A DNA stretch of 22,822 nucleotides from Nitrospirota bacterium (GTDB lineage Bacteria > Nitrospirota > UBA9217), in NCBI GenBank assembly GCA_963741205.1, contig CAVUHW010000025.1, positions 1-22,822 of the forward strand, in the 5' to 3' direction. Each line of letters opens with the position of its first letter. Positions within the stretch are counted from its first letter, which is position 1. The position numbers were made by a program, and so were the translations under genes. Under the pieces are notes generated by a model that made no database searches, was not told the DNA's origin, and saw only the letters and a list, made by a program, of their open reading frames with translations. Positions 4,865 to 20,051 of this stretch are shown here, in pieces.

Positions 4865-6509
4865 TCACGAACTCTTCAGCACGGCTTCCGTCTTCACTCC
4901 TTCGGGGGCCGTAAGGTCCTCGAAGGCCGTCATCGCGGCGATGGAGCCGTGCGACACGGCGACGGCGATCTGCTTCGGCGCGCCGGTGATATCGCCCGCG
5001 GCATAGACGCCGGGCATGGATGTCCGCATGGTCATCAGGTCCGTCTTGATGTAGCCCTGATCGTCGAGTTCGAGTCCGAGCTGTTTTGCGAGGTCATTGT
5101 TCGGGACATAGCCAATGGCGACGAATACGCCGTCAATCGGCAGTTCCTGACATCTTGCCGGATTTCTTGTCCTCGATCTTCACGGCCTTCACGATCTTGT
5201 CGCCGGAGATCTCCCGCACCTCGCTGTCCCACAGCGCGGGAATACCCGACTGCTTTAAACTCTCCTGGAGCCGCCGCTCGGCCCGGAGCGCATCCCGCCA
5301 GTGTACCAGGGTTACCTTCGCGCCGATATTATGGAGATAGAGCGCGTCCGTGACCGCTGTATTGCCGCCGCCCACCACGATCACCGGTTTCCCGTCCTTG
5401 AAGTAGTACCCGTCGCAGGTCGCGCAGTAGCTTACGCCCCTCCCGTAGAACCTCTGGGCGCCCTTTGCTTCCAGCGCCCGGTTGGCGACTCCCGTTGCGA
5501 TGATCAGACCTTTCGTGTTGTAGATGGCGTGGTTCGTCTTGAGCGAGAGCCTTCCGTTTTCGCGGTCCTTCGCCACCTCCGTCACGTATTCTCCGATATG
5601 GACCTCGCAGTACTGCGCGGCCTGCTGTGCGATCAAGTCCACGAGACTTTTCCCGCCGATACGCATGAAACCCGGATAGTTCTCCACGACCGGCGTGATG
5701 GCAACCTGGCCGCCCAGGTTGCTTTTCTCGATCACGATGCTGTTGAGTCCCGCGCGCACGGCATAGATCGCCGCGGTGAGCCCGGCGGGGCCGCCTCCGA
5801 TGATGACGAGGTCTTTTTCCACCGGCTCGCCCGAAATCTGCGTTGACGCGACCTGCGGTTCCTTGAGCGAGAGCAGGGACTCCACGAACCAGGGCTCCGG
5901 CTGGAGGCCGGCGCCGGTGAACGTGTTGTTGATGAACGTCTGCGGCACGGCGAGCGAGCCGAGGCTCTCCGCAAGGTCCTGGTTCTCGTAAATCTCGACG
6001 ATCTCGGCCGAGATCAAGTCGGGCTTCACGATTGCGGCGGAAAACGCGGACATGACCTGCTGCGGGCAATAAGGGCACGTGGGGCTCACGAAGACCTGGA
6101 TGTCCCGTTTCTCCCGGAGCTGGTCGTTGATCTTTGCCAGCGCTTCTTCGGTCAGAACGGTCTTCCCGGTGGACGCCATCAGGATGGCCACCAGGAAGGA
6201 GCGGCCCTCTTCGCCGACCGGAGCGCCGGTGTAACGGAGGCGATACTTGTCGGGGGCTATGAGGACCGTAGGCGACCGGGTGACGTTCCGTTTCACGGAC
6301 TGTTCGTCACCGATGGTATGGAACGACGCCTTCAGCTTGTCGGATAGTTCCGCAATCGCCTTGACCAGGGAAACGGCCGCATCATTAAACTGGTCGTTCT
6401 GCCCCGCTTTGGTATAGACCTCAAGGTGTACCTCTTCCTTGAGCCCGTCCAGAAGAGTTTCCTTGATGGCCTGCTTTACGTCGTCGGGAATGATTTCCTG
6501 TTGTGCCAT
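4865..6509 (-). CDS. Thioredoxin reductase with N-terminal thioredoxin-fold domains (AhpF-like architecture); frameshift near 5150
   Basis: CPYC, GGGPAG, CATCDG and GGGNTA motifs. After the shift it continues ELPIDGVFVAIGYVPN...TSMPGVYAAGDITGAPKQIAVAVSHGSIAA...KSS* to TGA at 4865-4867. Confidence 0.9.
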
Positions 6510-6522
6510 TGTTTACCTCAAT

Positions 6523-6608
6523 TTAGAAGTAGAAAAGTAAGAAGTAGGAAGTAAGAATTAGAAGTAAGATTTCTAATTCATACTTCTTAATTCATACTTC
6601 TTACATTT
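6523..6608. repeat. Heptamer tandem repeats in inverted arrangement
   Basis: AGAAGTA-type units (6523-6570), then complementary-type AATTCAT/ACTTCTT units (6575-6608). Confidence 0.65.
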
Positions 6609-7176
6609 ATCTTTATCCTCTGCGATATCTTCTTGAACTCCTCCGTGCCCGCGACCTTGAGGAGTTGGAACAATACCGTCTCGGTGCAGGTAATAACCGC
6701 CCCGGCGCTGCGCATGAACTCGATGCCCGTTCTCCAATTTTCCTCGGTGCGGGAACACACGGCGTCCTCCACCACGTGAACGTTCACTCCCGCCTTGAGC
6801 AGCCCCAAGCAGGTCTGGAGCACGCAGATATGGGTCTCCATTCCGGTCACGATGACGGTTTTTTTGTTGTGCTCCTTCAGTTCCTGCAGGAAGGCCGGTT
6901 GCCCGCAGCAATCAAAGGATAATTTTCTCGACCGGCTTGTACTCCGGCAGGACCGACTGAAGCTCAGGCACGGTCCTACCCAGGCCCTTGGGATACTGTT
7001 CGGTCACCACGACCGGGATCTTGATCATCTTCGCGAGCTCGATCAAGTGCTGGCAGTTCCTGACGACCTTGTCTTTCTCCTTCATCACGACCGCCAAGCC
7101 GCTCCTGAATGTCGACGACGAGGAGTACCGCGTCTTCTTTGTTCAGAATAAAATTATCAAGCGCCATTCTTTTCAT
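6587..7176 (-). CDS. Isochorismatase-family hydrolase (frameshifts near 7095 and 6917)
   Basis: Three frames join: LLVVDIQERL / VTEQYPKGLGRTVPEL / SFDCCG...GMETHICVLQT...DAVCSR. The start may be 7167. Confidence 0.9.
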
Positions 7177-7265
7177 TACTCCCTCGATGTCAATATTCTT
7201 AGACCCCGCCCATACTTTATTCCCACTCCGCTTTTACCTGCATCCAGTGCGGTGAAAAAGACTTA

Positions 7266-7282
7266 ACCGGCCCCCTGCCGGT
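7266..7282 (-). promoter_or_regulatory. SECIS-like hairpin for the second UGA
   Basis: Minus strand ACCGGC-AGGGG-GCCGGT; the loop begins at +18 after the UGA at 7296-7294. Confidence 0.7.
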
Positions 7283-7284
7283 CG

Positions 7285-7500
7285 TCACACTCCTCAGGAC
7301 CCGCCGTAACCTACGGCAATCTTCCCGTCCTCGACGATAACCGGGACCTTCCGCTCGCCCTTCGTGAATTTCAGCATTTCATCCAGCTTCGCGCTGTCCG
7401 CCTTCACATCGTAATAGACCGCTTTAGCTCCATAGGCCGACCTGGCCTTGTCCGTATGCGGTCAGCCCGCCTTCCCGAAAATCATCACCTTGTCCGTCAT
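7285..7500 (-). CDS. Uxx-star-type glutaredoxin-like selenoprotein with two Sec codons (71 aa; absent from ORF track)
   Basis: GAGGAGG SD, then MTDKVMIFGKAG(U)PHTDKARSAYGAKAVYYDVKADSAKLDEMLKFTKGERKVPVIVEDGKIAVGYGGS(U)GV*. TGA occurs at codons 13 and 69. The glutaredoxin VPVI motif is in frame, and each TGA is followed by a SECIS-like hairpin. Confidence 0.88.
7430..7461 (-). promoter_or_regulatory. SECIS-like hairpin for the first UGA
   Basis: After the UGA: CCGCAUACGGACA AGGCC-AGGUC-GGCCU AUGG. The AGGUC loop begins at +19, similar in loop sequence and spacing to the E. coli fdhF SECIS. Confidence 0.72.
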
Positions 7501-7650
7501 AATTCGCCTCCTCGTAAGGGATATTCAAGTCTCTATAATAATATCATTTTGCGGGTGCAAAAGTAAACTCGTTAGGATAGAATCTGTATCGTGAAGACAA
7601 ACGGAACAAATCCTTTGGCAGGCTTGTCTTATGGAGTAGAAGGAGACAGC

Positions 7651-8244
7651 GTGCCTGCACAGGACGACGATGCGGTCCTCGTCTCGGCCTCGCAACAGGG
7701 AGACCTGAACGCCTTCGAAAAGCTCGTCGCCAGGCACCAGAAGAGGATGCTCAATGTCGCCTTCAGGCTGATCGGAGATTATGACGACGCCTGCGAGGTG
7801 GTGCAGGATGCCTTTGTTTCCGCTTACAAAAGCATCAAGTCCTTCCGCGGTGAGGCGAAGTTCACGACCTGGCTCACAACCATTACCGTGAACCTGTCGA
7901 AGAACCGGTTGAAACAGATGAGAGCGCGGAGGGGACATGAGGCCTTCTCGCTGGATGAACAAGTTCAGACAGAGGACGGGCACATGACCATCGACCCGCC
8001 GTCAAAGGAACCATCGGTGCTGGACCGCATGGAATCTCGGGATGTCCAGGCGAGGGTCCAGGATTGCGTCAAGGCGCTTGAGCCGGATTTCCGGGAGGTG
8101 CTGGTGCTTCGTGACCTGCAGGAATTTTCCTATGAAGAAATCGGCAGCATGCTCAAGGTCCGGGAGGGCACGGTGAAGTCCCGGCTTTTCAGGGCGCGCG
8201 AAATGGTCAAGGACTGCCTCAAACGTTTCATGGGGGAGTTGTAA
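7651..8244 (+). CDS. ECF (sigma-70 family) RNA polymerase sigma factor
   Basis: GDLNAFEKLV, EVVQDAFV, FRGEAKFTTWL, FSYEEI and GTVKSRLFRAR motifs. AAGGAG SD precedes GTG 7651 (the ORF extends upstream to 7591). Confidence 0.93.
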   Translation: MPAQDDDAVLVSASQQGDLNAFEKLVARHQKRMLNVAFRLIGDYDDACEVVQDAFVSAYKSIKSFRGEAKFTTWLTTITVNLSKNRLKQMRARRGHEAFSLDEQVQTEDGHMTIDPPSKEPSVLDRMESRDVQARVQDCVKALEPDFREVLVLRDLQEFSYEEIGSMLKVREGTVKSRLFRAREMVKDCLKRFMGEL

Positions 8245-8293: not shown

Positions 8294-9325
8294 ATGGACC
8301 ACAACGACATTCGCCATAAACTGTCTGAATATCTTGATGGCTCGGTTACCGCCGAAGAGAAGTCGTCCATAGAAGAACATCTAAAGACCTGCTCTGCCTG
8401 CAGCGACGCGCTCCATGAACTGCAAAAGACCGTCGAACATATCAAGTCCGTCGAAGAGGTTGAGCCTCCGGCCTGGATGACGCAGAAGATCATGGCGAAC
8501 GTGCGCGCCGCTGAAGAAGAGAGGAAGGGCCTGTTCCGGAGACTCTTTCACCCTCTCTCCGTCAAACTGCCGATACAAGCTGTAGCCGTTTTGTTTCTTG
8601 CCGTTACCGCCTTCTATATCTATCAAAACATGTCACCCGACGGCGAAATATACGGAAGCGCCGCCTGAAAAGTTCGAGGCAGCAAAACCGGCCTCACCAT
8701 CGACTCTTGCTCCGGCACCCGAGCCAAAGATACGCCGTGAGCCTGCTGCCCGAGCCGAAAAGCCGCCCCAGACGCCGGAATATAAGGCCCTCGACATGAA
8801 GCAGGAATATGAAAAGCCTGCGCCCCCTGTGGCGCTGCGTAACGCTGCGGAATCTGCGCCGGCTGCAGCAAAACCTTTCGAGCCGGTTGAGAAAAAAAAG
8901 AGGGCCAAGGCGGTGGAATGCAGCAGGAATCTCGTCCCTCCGCTGATAAACGAGAGACGCCGGCTCCGGCGATGGGGTTAACATCGGGAGGAGAACCGCG
9001 GTCGGAAGGTACGGCGCCTGTTGCCAAAAGGAAGGCAGCCCTGGCAGAGGGAGGCGCGGAGAACGCGGTTGATTTGATAATGACGGTCAAGGAATTCGAC
9101 ACTGCTCAACGTGAAATTGAGAAGGCGGTCACAATGTTTGGCGGCAAAATCATCGGGAGTGTGCCGTCTGTTGACAAGGGTGCGATTATTGTATCGATCA
9201 ACAGGGACAAGTTCGCTGAACTCCTGTCAAAGTTGAAAACGATCGGCGAGGTGAAAGAAAAAATGCCGGTTCCGCTCGGTCGCGAAGGATATCTGACCAT
9301 CCGGATCACCATGACAAAAAATTAG
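8294..9325 (+). CDS. Zinc-binding (ZAS) transmembrane anti-sigma factor; two frameshifts (~8640, ~8895)
   Basis: LSEYLDG...HLKTCSAC (HxxxCxxC), a TM helix, a Pro/Ala-rich linker and a small C-terminal domain in 8918-9325; directly follows the ECF sigma gene. Confidence 0.82.
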
Positions 9326-14170: not shown

Positions 14171-15301
14171 ATGAGTTATTATTTATCCCGTCGGGCCGTC
14201 CTCAAATGGCTCGAAATCCCCTCCATTTATCAAATTGCAAAGGACGAGCTCTATGAGCTCGACGGCGACTCTTTCCGCTTTTTGCAGAATTGTGCGGCAA
14301 AGGACGGCTGCTCGTCAAAGGACGGGGCGTTCATCGATTATTGCATGGATGAGGGGTTGCTTACCACGGAGAAGGTGGTCGTCCAGCGGCCCCCTCTTAA
14401 GGAGGCCCCTGAACCGTCTCTCAGGTACCTTGAACTGCAAATAACAGACACCTGCAACCTTAGATGTAAACATTGCTATCTCGTCGAGGAATCACATAAG
14501 GAACTCTCGCCAGGGGAGGTGAACAAGGCCCTGAAGGAATTCGAGGCAATGCAGGGTCTGAGGGTGCTCATCACCGGCGGGGAGCCGCTCATGCACGGCA
14601 AGTTTAATGAAATCAATGAAATGCTCCCTGATTTTTTTATCAGGAAGGTCCTGTTCTCGAACGGCTTGCTTTTGAAGAAGGACATCCTCAGTACGCTGAA
14701 AGTGGATGAGATCCAGATCAGCATCGACGGGATGGAGCAGGCCCATGACCTGGTCCGCGGGGCCGGAACGTTCAAACGCGCCATGGAAGCGGCGCATGAT
14801 GCGCTCGATGCGGGATTCGATGTTTCTATCTCGACCATGGTGCACCGCGGTAACCTCGCCGACTTCGACGCCATGGAGCGGCTCTTCAAGGGAATGGGCG
14901 TAAAGGATTGGACCGTGGATGTGCCCTGCGTGACCGGCCGCCTGAAGGAGAACGACGAGTTGTGCGTCAGTCCCGAGGAGGGAGGCAAATACCTGGGGTA
15001 CGGCTACGGGGGGGGCCTCCTTTCGTCCGGCCAGGGATATGGCTGCGGGCTCCACCTCATGTCGGTGATGGCCGATGGGAAGATTGCAAAATGCTCCTTT
15101 TTCCGTGACAACGCCGTAGGTTATATTGCGGACGGCCTTAGGGAGGCATGGAAAAAAATCCGGCCCGTGCGGCTCAGCGATCTATCCTGCGATTGCGAAT
15201 ATCTCGAGGTTTGTCGAGGGGGTTGCAGGTACCGGGCCGAACTTCTATCGGGGAAAAACGGCAAGGACCTTTACCGCTGCACGCTCTATGGTATAATATA
15301 A
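14171..15301 (+). CDS. Radical SAM/SPASM-domain protein with an N-terminal extension (putative peptide maturase)
   Basis: CNLRCKHC, ITGGEP and QISIDG motifs; SPASM-type C..V.ADG.I.KC and CDCx5Cx3C...C; about 80 aa before the rSAM core. Confidence 0.92.
   Translation: MSYYLSRRAVLKWLEIPSIYQIAKDELYELDGDSFRFLQNCAAKDGCSSKDGAFIDYCMDEGLLTTEKVVVQRPPLKEAPEPSLRYLELQITDTCNLRCKHCYLVEESHKELSPGEVNKALKEFEAMQGLRVLITGGEPLMHGKFNEINEMLPDFFIRKVLFSNGLLLKKDILSTLKVDEIQISIDGMEQAHDLVRGAGTFKRAMEAAHDALDAGFDVSISTMVHRGNLADFDAMERLFKGMGVKDWTVDVPCVTGRLKENDELCVSPEEGGKYLGYGYGGGLLSSGQGYGCGLHLMSVMADGKIAKCSFFRDNAVGYIADGLREAWKKIRPVRLSDLSCDCEYLEVCRGGCRYRAELLSGKNGKDLYRCTLYGII
15270..15297 (+). promoter_or_regulatory. Putative promoter for the peptide gene, inside the last rSAM codons
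   Basis: TTTACC-16-TATAAT with TG extension (TGGTATAAT 15289-15297). Confidence 0.5.
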
Positions 15302-16731: not shown

Positions 16732-17855
16732 TTACTTTTTCGTTTTGTCTCCGAACAGTTCCTTTACCTTATCGAAAAAGCCCTTCGTCAGGGGCGTCGA
16801 CTCTTCCGAGTTCAGACGTTCGAATTCCTGGAGCAGTTCCTTCTGTTTCGCTGTCAGTTTGGTCGGGACTTCGACGTTGATCCTGCAGATCTGGTCTCCG
16901 GACCCGCCCCCGCGAAGGTTGGGAAAACCCTTTCCCCGGAACCTGAACGTTTGGCCCGGCTGGGTGCCGGCGGGTATTTTCAGTTTCGCATTGCCGCTGA
17001 GCGTCGGCGCATCGATCTCCGTGCCGAGCGCCGCCTGGATAAAGCTGACCGGCACCTCGCAGATGATGTCCTGACCCTCGCGCTTGAAGAGTGGATGGTC
17101 CTCGACCGTAAGGAACACGTACAGATCGCCGGGGGGGCCGCCATAGGAGCCGATCTCACCCTCTCCGGAGAGGCGGATCGTGTTGCCGGTTTCTACTCCG
17201 GCCGGGATCTTCACCGACAGCGTCCGTTCACGCTCTATGCGTTTCCGTCCGCCACAGGTGCTACAGGGATCGGTGATGACCCTGCCTTCTCCCCCGCAGC
17301 GCGAGCAGGTCCGGCTGATGCTGAAAAATCCCTGCTGCGTCCGGATCTGCCCCGCTCCCTGGCAACCCGGGCAAACCTTAATGCCGTCCTTGGTTTTTGC
17401 ACCGCTGCCGTCGCAGTCAGGGCAGCGCTCCCAGCGGGGAACACGGATCTTCGTCGCCGTGCCGAACGCCGCTTCTTCGAAGGTTATCTTGAGATTGTAA
17501 CGCAGGTCGTCACCGGCCGTGGCGCGGGCCCGCCCCTGCCCGCCTCCGAAGAACTCGCCGAAGATGTCGCCGAAGATGTCGCCCATGCCGCCCATCCCGG
17601 CCCCGAATCCGCCGAACCCGGGCCCCGCGCCCTGCGCGCCCGGCGCTACGCCGAACTGGTCGTAATAGCCCTTTTCTGAGCGTCGGACAGGACTTCGTAG
17701 GCCTCGTTGATTTCCTTGAACTTCTCTTCGGCGGCCTTGTTGCCGGGATTTTTATCGGGATGATATTCGTGCGCAAGTTTCCGGTAAGCGCGCTTGAGTT
17801 CGGCCTCGGTCGCATTCCTGTGCACGCCGAGCAGTGCGTAATAATCTTTCGCCAT
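16732..17855 (-). CDS. dnaJ: Chaperone DnaJ (frameshift near 17668)
   Basis: J domain with HPD, G/F region, four CxxCxGxG-type repeats and the C-terminal domain. Confidence 0.96.
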
Positions 17856-18124: not shown

Positions 18125-20051
18125 TTACTTCTTGTCCTTGTCCACTTCCTCGAACTCGGCATCCACGACCTTCTCGCCTGGCTTGGCGCCGTCGCCTTCG
18201 GCCGCACCGGATGAAGCATCCGGGCCCGGCTGTCCCTGCCCCTTGTTCATCTTGGAGTAGACCTCTTCGGCGAGCTTATGGGACGCCTTCGAGAGCTCGG
18301 CGACCGCCTTCTTGATGGCGTCGACATCCTGGCCGTCCTTGACCGCCTTTGCCTGTTCGAGCGCCTTTTGGATGTCCGCGCGCTCGGACTCGGTCAGCTT
18401 GGAGCCGTAATCGGCCACGGACTTCTCGACGGAGTAAATGAGCGTGTCCACTTCGTTCCGCGCCTCGGCAATTTCCTTCTTCTTCTTGTCTTCGGCCGCA
18501 TGCGCCTCAGCCTCTTTTATGGCCTTGTCGATCTCGTCCTTGCTCATGCCGGATTGACGCCGTGATCTTGATGGACTGTTCCCTGCCCGTTCCGAGGTCC
18601 TTGGCCATGACGTGCACGATGCCGTTCGCGTCGATGTCAAAGGTCACCTCGACCTGCGGGATGCCGCGCGGCGCCGGCGGGATGCCCACGAGTTCGAACC
18701 GCCCCAGTGTTTTGTTGTCCGCGGCCATTTCGCGCTCGCCCTGGAGCACATGGATGGAGACCGCGGTCTGGTTGTCCGAGGCCGTGGAGAAGACCTGGCT
18801 CTTTTTGGTCGGGATCGTGGTGTTCCGCTCGATGAGGCGCGTGGTCACGCCTCCCAGGGTCTCGATGCCGAGCGACAGCGGGGTCACGTCCAAAAGCAGG
18901 ACGTCCTTCACCTGGCCGGTCAGGACCGCGCCCTGGATGGCCGCGCCGATCGCCACCACTTCGTCGGGGTTCACACCGCGGTGAGGCTCTTTCTTGAAGA
19001 AATCCTTCACCGTGGAGATCACCTTCGGCATGCGCGTCATGCCGCCCACGAGGACCGCCTCGTTGATCTGATCAACGGTCTTGCCCGCGTCGTTGAGCGC
19101 CTTCCTCACCGGGTCGATGCTCTTTGCGACCAGGTCATCAACGAGCTGCTCGTATTTGGCCCGCGAAAGCTTGTACAGAAGGTGCTTCGGTCCGCTTGCG
19201 TCCGCGGTGATGAAGGGGAGGTTGATCTCCGTCTCCATGACCGTGGAAAGTTCTATCTTGGCCTTTTCCGCCGCTTCCTTGAGCCGCTGGAGCGCCATCT
19301 TGTCCTTCTTCAGGTCGATGCCCGAATCCTTGAGGAACGATTCGGCGAGCCACTTGATGATGCGGTCGTCGAAATCGTCGCCGCCCAGGAAGGTGTCGCC
19401 GTTGGTGGACTTCACCTCGAACACCCCCTCGCCCAGTTCCAGGATGGAGATATCGAAGGTGCCGCCGCCCAGGTCGTAAACCGCGATGGTCTCGTCCTTC
19501 TTCTTGTCGAGACCGTAGGCCAGCGACGCGGCCGTGGGCTCGTTGATGATGCGCAGCACGTTCAGGCCCGATATCCTTCCGGCATCCTTGGTCGCCTGGC
19601 GCTGGCTGTCGTTAAAGTAGGCAGGCACGGTGATGACGGCGTCCGTCACCTTTTCTCCGAGATAATCTTCGGCCGTCTGCCTCATCTTCTGCAGGATCAT
19701 GGCCGAGATCTCCGCCGGGCTGAAGACCTTGCCCCGTATCTCGACGTGGGCGTCGCCGTTGTCCGCCTTCACGATTTTGTACGGCAGGTGCTTTCTCGCC
19801 TCCTGCACCTCGGCCGTGTCATACTTACGCCCGATGAGGCGCTTGATCGAGAAGATGGTATTGTCCGGGTTGGTGATGGACTGCCGCTTGGCGATCTGTC
19901 CCACGAGCCGCTCGCCGCTGTCGGTGATGGCCACGACCGACGGCGTGGTCCTGCTCCCCTCGGAGTTCGCGATCACGACCGGTTCTCCGCCTTCCATCAC
20001 GGCGACACATGAGTTTGTCGTACCTAGATCGATTCCTATAACTTTTGCCAT
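18125..20051 (-). CDS. dnaK: Chaperone DnaK (frameshift near 18553)
   Basis: [24 protein letters not shown] and PAPRGIPQ motifs; the C-terminus VVDAEFEEV is in the second frame. Confidence 0.97.

Follow-up and report, generated by a model that had tools for sequence, protein, structure and literature searches.

The window analysed here, a stretch of 22,822 nucleotides from a Nitrospirota bacterium (contig CAVUHW010000025.1 of assembly GCA_963741205.1), carries on the minus strand of positions 7266 to 7500 a gene of UXX-star family 1, the product of which is a 71-residue cytoplasmic selenoprotein with a glutaredoxin fold. The membership of this family and the decoding of two in-frame UGA codons as selenocysteine (Sec, U) are held here with very high confidence, and the whole explanation, which joins a two-Sec glutaredoxin-fold protein, its decoding and a shuttle chemistry, is considered highly probable. 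The kind of gene is already known, given that the protein matches the NCBIfam profile NF041114 over its full length and above the cutoff, and that the family is listed in a 2026 AEM review; it is a typical representative of a selenoprotein family that has been curated but is functionally uncharacterised. To this catalogued family the analysis adds an invariant Sec in the C-terminal tail, a selenocysteine insertion sequence (SECIS) in the 3' untranslated region (UTR), a predicted docking of the tail near the active site, which suggests a diselenide, and a link to a reductase in one clade, none of which would surprise a specialist in selenoproteins.

The frame opens at an ATG (7500-7498) and runs for 71 sense codons (7500-7288), preceded by a strong Shine-Dalgarno sequence and containing in-frame TGAs at codons 13 and 69, just as the initial annotation had described it (coordinates in Table 1). 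The translation reads MTDKVMIFGKAG-U-PHTDKARSAYGAKAVYYDVKADSAKLDEMLKFTKGERKVPVIVEDGKIAVGYGGS-U-GV, in which the first Sec follows MTDKVMIFGKAG and opens the motif U-P-H-T, while the chain ends in GYGGS-U-GV. The second TGA is indeed followed by just two residues and a stop, and this stop, on which the initial annotation was silent, is itself a third TGA in the same frame (7287-7285), beyond which six further sense codons precede a TAA.

For the profile searches, the alignments and the structure models, Sec was written as Cys. Searched in this form, the protein obtained 107.9 bits against NF041114 (UXX-star selenoprotein family 1; cutoff 72), with residues 5-71 on positions 1-70 of the 70 in the profile, and 76.7 bits against NF041212 (Uxx-star family glutaredoxin-like (seleno)protein; cutoff 66), which bears out the assignment to the Uxx-star family made in the initial annotation. 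Pfam Glutaredoxin (PF00462) was also matched, at 32.8 bits against a gathering cutoff of 22.9. UXX-star families 2 and 3 and the HUGP/GUXX-star fusion (NF041211, NF047338 and NF045501) gave 39.3, 50.3 and 43.6 bits, below their respective cutoffs of 100, 97 and 325. These other families share the same glutaredoxin-like domain and the C-terminal U-x-x-stop, whereas family 2 has a single Sec and the motif GxGU, and the fusion has an additional N-terminal domain (PMC13188914); according to the review, they were described in Haft and Tolstoy 2025 (mSystems). Family 1 is listed in the same review as 'Distant Grx-like protein 1', with the motif UxxT and two predicted Sec residues, and is credited to Zhang and Gladyshev 2008 (PMC13188914); in the passages of that study which were consulted, only a 'Grx-like' family with the motif UxxC was found.

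The active-site motif of the window protein is U13-P-H-T16, and positions C13, P14 and T16 are invariant in an alignment of 72 sequences. In the comparison with solved glutaredoxins, to which the sequence similarity is low (best match in the PDB at an E-value of 4.9e-06), the first Cys of CPYC is matched by U13 and the second by T16, so that the placing of the first TGA at the glutaredoxin active-site position by the initial annotation stands. On the other hand, the features of a canonical glutaredoxin are absent, since the motif is U-P-H-T rather than C-x-x-C or C-x-x-S, and the chain stops four residues past a G-G pair, with no third helix. The window protein is, given this, a protein of glutaredoxin-like fold and not a canonical glutaredoxin. 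The classical glutaredoxins, including cGrx1 and cGrx2 of Clostridium oremlandii (PDB 7c10, 7c12 and 4tr0), resemble it in fold (template modelling (TM) scores of 0.67-0.74), in the position of the active-site residue at the N-terminus of helix 1 and in the cis-Pro loop (V-P), whereas the window protein has Thr in place of the second Cys, ends after G-G without the last helix, and bears a second Sec on its tail. Sec-containing glutaredoxins with a U/CxxC/S motif are also noted in the review (PMC13188914).

A scan of one genome per species produced 397 matches to the pattern, 378 of which were confirmed by tblastn, and the comparative counts refer to the best 80 of these 378 loci, or to 81 sequences when the window is added. 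These loci belong mostly to metagenome-assembled genomes (MAGs) of Nitrospirota/Thermodesulfovibrionia, Desulfobacterota and Pelotomaculum. The window protein resembles the rest of family 1 in the UxxT motif, in the second Sec three residues from the end, in the length of about 70 residues and in its occurrence in anaerobes (Nitrospirota, Desulfobacterota and Pelotomaculum); it shows no difference of substance, being at most 79% identical to the top locus in tblastn and 83% identical in the MAFFT alignment.

The reading frame is kept in all 80 loci. Codon 13 is TGA in 70 of the 81 sequences, TGC in 10 and TGT in one, while codon 69 is TGA in every one of the 81; the alignment of Cys with UGA in homologues, the lack of which had been named beforehand as a reason to abandon a selenoprotein, is present at the first of these positions. 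Given that the stretch ahead of U13 is conserved, with M1, I7 and G9 invariant, and that the two codons after U69 vary at their third positions only (GGN GUN), which is a coding signature, translation runs through both TGAs. The window and all 80 loci share a layout in which exactly two residues separate Sec from the stop, the contig of one locus breaking off short of that stop. The codon that follows U-x-x reads TGA 45 times, TAA 28 times and TAG 7 times, with the one contig ending first, and as TAA or TAG is thus found in 35 of the 80 relatives, the 'star' of the family name stands for a genuine stop, and translation in the window ends at the third TGA.

The claim that standard gene callers miss the gene also held up in the protein databases. 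Among the 41 homologues returned by the protein search, from which the exact window sequence was absent, many are fragments of 42-49 residues confined to the stretch between the first and second TGAs, and several have W at all three TGA positions, since gene callers had used genetic code 4 on short contigs. Standard callers omit or break up what is a real gene, and its annotation should mark the genome of the window as one that uses selenocysteine. One database fragment, P0036, reads GGS-C-GV-W followed by 22 more residues. It represents either a variant with Cys69 that lacks the stop, or a gene call that is erroneous or mixes genetic codes, and no other sequence hints at a Cys in the tail position.

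The homologues with W at all three positions would also be expected if TGA were reassigned to Trp or Gly (genetic codes 4 or 25) and no selenocysteine were involved, an explanation to which we give almost no credence. A general reassignment of TGA is excluded because TGA ends 7 of the 16 complete genes of the window, none of which has an in-frame TGA, and the LemA and CorA genes end where their Pfam profiles end. Neither the alternation of Cys and TGA at codon 13 nor hairpins of the SECIS type would be expected from such a reassignment.

Each of the two UGAs is followed by a hairpin with a G-containing loop. The first (AGGCC-AGGUC-GGCCU, 7448-7434) has a loop that begins at nucleotide 22, counting the U of the UGA as 1, or +19 after the A, and the second (GACCGGC-AGGGG-GCCGGUU, 7283-7265) has a loop that begins at nucleotide 21, or +18, so that both spacings given in the initial annotation were reproduced. 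For hairpin 1, pairing is kept in 96.5% of the cells of 69 aligned sequences, against at most 61% in slid controls, and two of the five pairs show compensatory changes (GC to AU in 17 rows and CG to UA in 4 rows), a score reached by none of 500 shuffles; these changes include paired synonymous third positions (GCC...UCG to GCU...UCA). For hairpin 2, pairing is kept in 83.8% of the cells of 79 sequences, against at most 49.8% in slid controls, and all seven pairs show compensatory changes, with a covariation of 0.631 versus 0.284 in shuffles, a value reached by 0 of 500. The stems of hairpin 2 are rewritten wholesale between clades (CCGGC/GCCGG, CCGAT/ATCGG, CTCAT/ATGAG and TTCGATC/GATCGAA), with retention of the position and of the G-containing loop. 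Judged by these comparisons of sequences, both hairpins are structures under selection.

The position of the loop is likewise maintained, as a simple hairpin finder placed its start at nucleotide 21-22 in 60 of 79 sequences for the second element and in 48 of 69 for the first, although it found no contiguous stem of hairpin 1 in 10 of the 69. A G occurs among the first three nucleotides of the loop in 77 of 79 and 54 of 69 sequences, respectively. In the 11 loci with Cys at position 13, hairpin 1 retains a mean of 3.9 of its 5 pairs, versus 4.8, and the G-rich loop is lost in 7 of the 11, a decay that is expected if hairpin 1 serves the decoding of the UGA. Within this group, three loci (L002, L004 and L018) have an intact or nearly intact hairpin 1, with a loop of AGGUC or AGGGC, which suggests that they are recent replacements of Sec by Cys, and the Cys13 genes of the Pelotomaculum type have lost it.

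The bSECISearch model, as quoted in the review, requires a loop of 3-9 nucleotides, an upper stem of 4-16 base pairs, a G in the first two loop positions, 16-37 nucleotides between UGA and loop, and a folding energy limit of -7.5 kcal/mol (PMC13188914). Measured against these published values, the first element (loop AGGUC, 5 base pairs, 18 nucleotides from UGA to loop) agrees in loop, stem, G and spacing, and the second (loop AGGGG, 7 base pairs, 17 nucleotides) agrees in all of the constraints, with a minimum free energy of -11.1 kcal/mol. Together with the covariation in both elements, this argues for the proposal of the initial annotation that the hairpin after each TGA acts as a SECIS. 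The elements are similar to the bacterial SECIS of the Escherichia coli fdhF type in that a small stem-loop stands right after the UGA, with a G in the loop, stems of 5 and 7 base pairs and loops of five nucleotides. The difference lies in the second element of the window, which is located wholly 3' of the stop, and in the UGA stop that separates the Sec codon from the hairpin in 45 of the 80; bacterial SECIS elements have been described as residing in coding regions (PMC13188914).

An intrinsic terminator might produce a similar hairpin in this position, in which case hairpin 2 would not be a SECIS and the protein would end at codon 68 with one Sec or none. A terminator scan does flag 7283-7265 followed by AAGTCTTTTT, and the hairpin folds modestly better than its shuffles. 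A T-rich tail follows the hairpin in only 9 of 79 relatives, however, for which reason hairpin 2 was rejected as a conserved terminator, and a co-oriented gene begins 109 nucleotides downstream of the UXX-star gene. The fixed distance from the UGA, the G-containing loop in nearly all of the sequences and the coding-type conservation of two codons, always followed by a stop, also speak against a mere terminator, which we regard as very improbable.

Under the preferred reading, in which both hairpins are SECIS elements, each UGA would be directed by its own stem-loop of the SelB type, with an apical loop 18-19 nucleotides after the UGA and a G in its second position. SelB carrying the Sec-tRNA would bind each loop and deliver Sec while the UGA is in the A site, as in established bacterial Sec insertion. 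The second element lies entirely in the 3' UTR, given that only Gly-Val and the stop follow Sec69. The UGA of the stop is 9 nucleotides nearer to the hairpin than the UGA of Sec69, one nucleotide before the outer G-U pair and two before the conserved stem, and it may terminate translation because it is too near, as the hairpin would by then be entering the ribosome or melted by it, SelB would be unable to present the Sec-tRNA, and the release factor would win. The UGA stop between a Sec codon and a 3' UTR SECIS, found in more than half of the relatives, represents a natural test of the spacing rule of SelB.

The same arrangement raises the question of whether the third UGA is partly read as Sec, to give an isoform with three Sec residues (...U-G-V-U-RPAGGR). 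The six additional sense codons before the TAA would permit such a product, and the stop is TGA in 45 of 80 loci versus 221 of 589 (37.5%) neighbouring open reading frames (ORFs) of at least 150 residues, an excess that is not trusted because the loci are related, the count is not corrected for relatedness and the set of ORFs is uncurated. This isoform is considered most improbable, given that TAA or TAG replaces the TGA in 35 of the 80 relatives, that the conservation after the stop (PAGCR, LIGDE and others) is that of the hairpin read as protein, changing by compensatory pairs, and that the UGA is 1-2 nucleotides before the stem, compared with the 16-37 nucleotides of the published model.

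With regard to structure, the AlphaFold2 model of the full-length protein, which was built from the 72-sequence alignment, has a mean predicted local distance difference test (pLDDT) of 85.8 and the order beta-alpha-beta-alpha-beta-beta, that is, the glutaredoxin core without the last helix. The best Foldseek matches are all glutaredoxins or NrdH, with TM scores of 0.63-0.74. DSSP assigns to this model two isolated two-residue beta bridges, at 51-52 and 69-70, and in a control model of residues 1-67 (pLDDT 87.4) the 51-52 bridge is gone and all else is unchanged. Because the bridge at 51-52 is lost without the tail, Sec69-Gly70 is predicted to pair with the Lys51-Val52 loop before the invariant Pro53. 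The Lys51-Val52-cisPro53 loop corresponds to what we take to be the place where, in complexes of glutaredoxins with glutathione, the Cys of glutathione pairs with the Val of the T-V-P loop (the Cys-Gly position), beside the active-site residue.

A possible chemistry may be built upon this geometry. Sec13 would sit at the N-terminus of helix 1 in the motif U-P-x-T, with Thr in place of the resolving Cys, and Sec69 would be carried by a short C-terminal tail, G-G-[S/T/A]-U-G-V-COOH, which folds back on the Lys51-Val52-cisPro53 loop. The two selenols could then close an intramolecular diselenide, or a selenenylsulfide in the 11 relatives with Cys13, and the protein would work as a low-potential, two-electron redox shuttle in which the exposed tail Sec attacks and residue 13 resolves. 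The replacement of Sec13 in 11 of the 81 sequences and of Sec69 in none suggests that the tail Sec is the reactive end. To a Sec13-Sec69 diselenide redox shuttle, as predicted from the model, we assign a little less than an even chance; if true, this would be an unusual case of a bacterial protein with a natural, catalytic diselenide. The fuller proposal, which is more tentative, is that the Sec-Gly-Val tail may be a built-in stand-in for glutathione in the Cys-Gly groove, which would make the protein, through its Sec13-Sec69 diselenide, a self-contained shuttle of very low potential, driven in the clade of the window by a fusion of a protein disulfide oxidoreductase (PDO) with thioredoxin reductase. 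Anaerobes, to our knowledge, generally lack glutathione.

Parts of this arrangement are known from other proteins. In animal thioredoxin reductase, a flexible C-terminal Gly-Cys-Sec-Gly tail passes electrons from a buried redox center to substrates, and Sec is inserted with a eukaryotic SECIS and SBP2; in both cases Sec stands two to three residues before the C-terminus and the SECIS has to lie in the 3' UTR, whereas the partner of Sec in the reductase is an adjacent Cys, in a selenenylsulfide, rather than a distant Sec, and the enzyme is a large flavoprotein rather than a protein of 71 residues. The monothiol glutaredoxin Grx5 has a single nucleophile and a semi-conserved Cys right after G-G that is able to bond with it, although it uses Cys and keeps the C-terminal helix. 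SelL is another natural protein proposed to form a diselenide, with the difference that both of its Sec residues are in one UxxU motif of a thioredoxin-like protein.

The same two-Sec protein might instead coordinate soft metals or metalloids (such as Hg, As, Cu or Cd) between its selenolates and act as a chaperone, sensor or detoxifier. Two selenolates held as close as the model implies would chelate strongly, and the window contains genes for a CorA-type transporter and TerC, neither of which is adjacent to the UXX-star gene. We consider this function unlikely, given that no metal-resistance or metal-transport gene was found among the 24 commonest neighbour clusters of the 80 loci, that thiol-disulfide oxidoreductases have the same fold, active-site position and cis-Pro loop, and that the neighbour in the closest clade is a disulfide reductase.

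This reductase is the flavoprotein encoded two genes downstream in the Nitrospirota clade of the window, where it would be the likeliest enzyme to recycle the redox shuttle proposed above. It has about 550 residues and joins an N-terminal module like that of a protein disulfide oxidoreductase (TIGR02187) to a thioredoxin reductase (TIGR01292). The scores of its orthologue (L008:4319-5965) are all below the cutoffs, being 327 bits for TIGR01292 (cutoff 343), 149.7 for TIGR02187 (185) and 292.6 for AhpF (502.9). The flavoprotein cluster is found downstream on the same strand in 12 loci and the window, and in any orientation in 17 of the 80. That this PDO-thioredoxin-reductase fusion is the reductase partner is a doubtful assignment, drawn from gene order.

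A number of findings weigh against the selenoprotein, its two SECIS elements and the proposed chemistry. In single-sequence folding, hairpin 1 has a z-score of -0.49, with 53 of 200 dinucleotide shuffles folding at least as well, and hairpin 2 a z-score of -1.78, with 11 of 200, for which reason folding of this type was rejected as evidence for the hairpins; because their stability is unremarkable compared with shuffles, the sequence of the window alone proves little. The bare 15-nucleotide form of hairpin 1, at -7.4 kcal/mol, is just short of the -7.5 limit of the published model, and a 19-nucleotide form reaches -8.4. No match to Rfam was obtained at gathering thresholds in a scan of the window, ARAGORN found no tRNA in its 22.8 kb, and none of selA, selB, selC and selD, which the initial annotation expected in the genome, is present in it; nor was a tRNA-Sec found by ARAGORN in the 80 fetched loci. 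When another selenoprotein gene was sought in the window, there was no NCBIfam match for any of 37 read-through frames, which had been picked by eye, in stretches without an annotated gene, from 227 frames with a single TGA. The docking of the tail is read from DSSP strings of models in which Sec is represented by Cys, with a pLDDT of only about 74 in the tail. The reductase partner is not family-wide, since the neighbourhood is conserved in the closest clade only, and no experiments on any member of UXX-star family 1 were found in the literature.

Finally, at least five frameshifts affect conserved genes of the window (dnaK, dnaJ, the flavoprotein gene and, twice, the isochorismatase-like gene), so that its base-level accuracy is imperfect. 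Such errors would favour the view that there is no selenoprotein at all and that the TGAs arose through errors of sequencing, or through mutation of a glutaredoxin gene in decay. This is extremely improbable, as the errors of the window are indels, none of which occurs in the UXX-star ORF (aligned to the profile from end to end), and, of 81 independent genomes, 70 have TGA at codon 13 and all have it at codon 69, with hairpins conserved through covariation.

The neighbourhood of the selenoprotein gene (Table 1) is syntenic with that of Nitrospirota MAG loci at approximately 70-80% nucleotide identity. In the closest clade, the order comprises divergent genes for an extracytoplasmic function (ECF) sigma factor and its anti-sigma factor, the UXX-star gene, often an isochorismatase-family hydrolase, and the flavoprotein. 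The isochorismatase-family gene stands between the UXX-star and flavoprotein genes in six of the 80 loci and in the window, and its intact orthologue (L015:3177-3749) scores 117.9 bits against Pfam Isochorismatase. No family-wide neighbourhood was found among the 80 loci, the commonest real neighbour cluster being present in 17 of them; the largest cluster (24 loci) is represented by an ORF antisense to the UXX-star gene, with no Pfam match. In other clades the neighbours are unrelated, and include PAS histidine kinases, a beta-CASP nuclease and NlpC/P60 proteins.

Table 1. Coordinates of the UXX-star gene, its predicted decoding signals and the neighbouring features in the window
Feature	Position	Strand	Basis or remark
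Shine-Dalgarno sequence GAGGAGG	7507..7513	minus	6-nt spacer to the ATG; read from the sequence
UXX-star family 1 selenoprotein gene, 71 sense codons and TGA stop	7285..7500	minus	translation; NF041114; Pfam Glutaredoxin; frame kept in 80 related loci
UGA codon 13 (Sec13), glutaredoxin active-site position, U-P-H-T	7462..7464	minus	TGA/Cys alternation; alignment to CPYC
UGA codon 69 (Sec69), third residue from the C-terminus, GGS-U-GV	7294..7296	minus	TGA in 81/81
True stop UGA	7285..7287	minus	6 nt after the UGA of Sec69; TGA, TAA or TAG among relatives
Predicted SECIS 1, 5-bp stem, loop AGGUC, within the coding region (codons 18-23, K-A-R-S-A)	7434..7448	minus	covariation
Predicted SECIS 2, 7-bp stem, loop AGGGG, wholly in the 3' UTR	7265..7283	minus	covariation
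Sigma-70-like promoter candidate, TTTACT-18 nt-TATTAT, TG before the -10	7538..7567	minus	upstream of the UXX-star gene; consensus match only, 9/12
Isochorismatase-family hydrolase gene, in three frames (frameshifts near 7119-7062 and 6941-6896)	6576..7176	minus	downstream neighbour
NAD(P)H flavoprotein disulfide reductase gene, fused N-terminal PDO-like module (AhpF architecture), CPYC and CATC, frameshift near 5177-5123	4865..6509	minus	second downstream neighbour
Divergent ECF sigma factor gene	7591..8244	plus	present in 8/80 loci and the window
zf-HC2/DUF2275 anti-sigma gene, broken in the window	from 8294	plus	matching position in 9 loci and the window

A consensus scan of positions 6900-7700 found two promoter-grade sites, compared with 0.5 expected. 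Besides the candidate upstream of the UXX-star gene, a strong sigma-70-like match on the minus strand at 7166-7193 (TTGACA-16-AAGAAT, 10/12) overlaps the annotated start of the isochorismatase-like gene at 7176, and the downstream genes may be transcribed from a promoter of their own, or else the isochorismatase-like gene may in fact begin further down. The anti-sigma gene (zf-HC2 and DUF2275, 8294-9325 on the plus strand) encodes 124 residues in the window compared with 342-380 in most orthologues; the ORF at 8918-9325 may hold the rest of it, as the result, probably, of another frameshift. A gene of the radical SAM/SPASM type is found at 14171-15298 (plus strand), the best NCBIfam similarity of which is to peptide or cofactor maturases, far below the cutoffs, and in the close clade orthologues of this gene (cluster 20, five loci) are again found near the UXX-star gene.

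On the minus strand, changes of frame are needed at 18518-18575 and 17641-17690 (dnaK and dnaJ), in addition to those in the PDO-thioredoxin-reductase flavoprotein and isochorismatase-like genes that are entered in Table 1. It is unlikely that dnaK and dnaJ are real pseudogenes, and the pattern of the frameshifts looks like that of indel errors in long-read assemblies, several of the close relatives being contigs of that style. Opposite dnaK, at 18612-20009 on the plus strand, an ORF of 466 residues gives 506 bits to Pfam PF10712 ('NAD-specific glutamate dehydrogenase'); as this entry is presumably the known artefact of translating the opposite strand of dnaK, the ORF should not be annotated as a gene. 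The minus strand at positions 3-299 encodes a toxin of the ParE type, from a type II toxin-antitoxin pair, in an ORF that runs off the window start.

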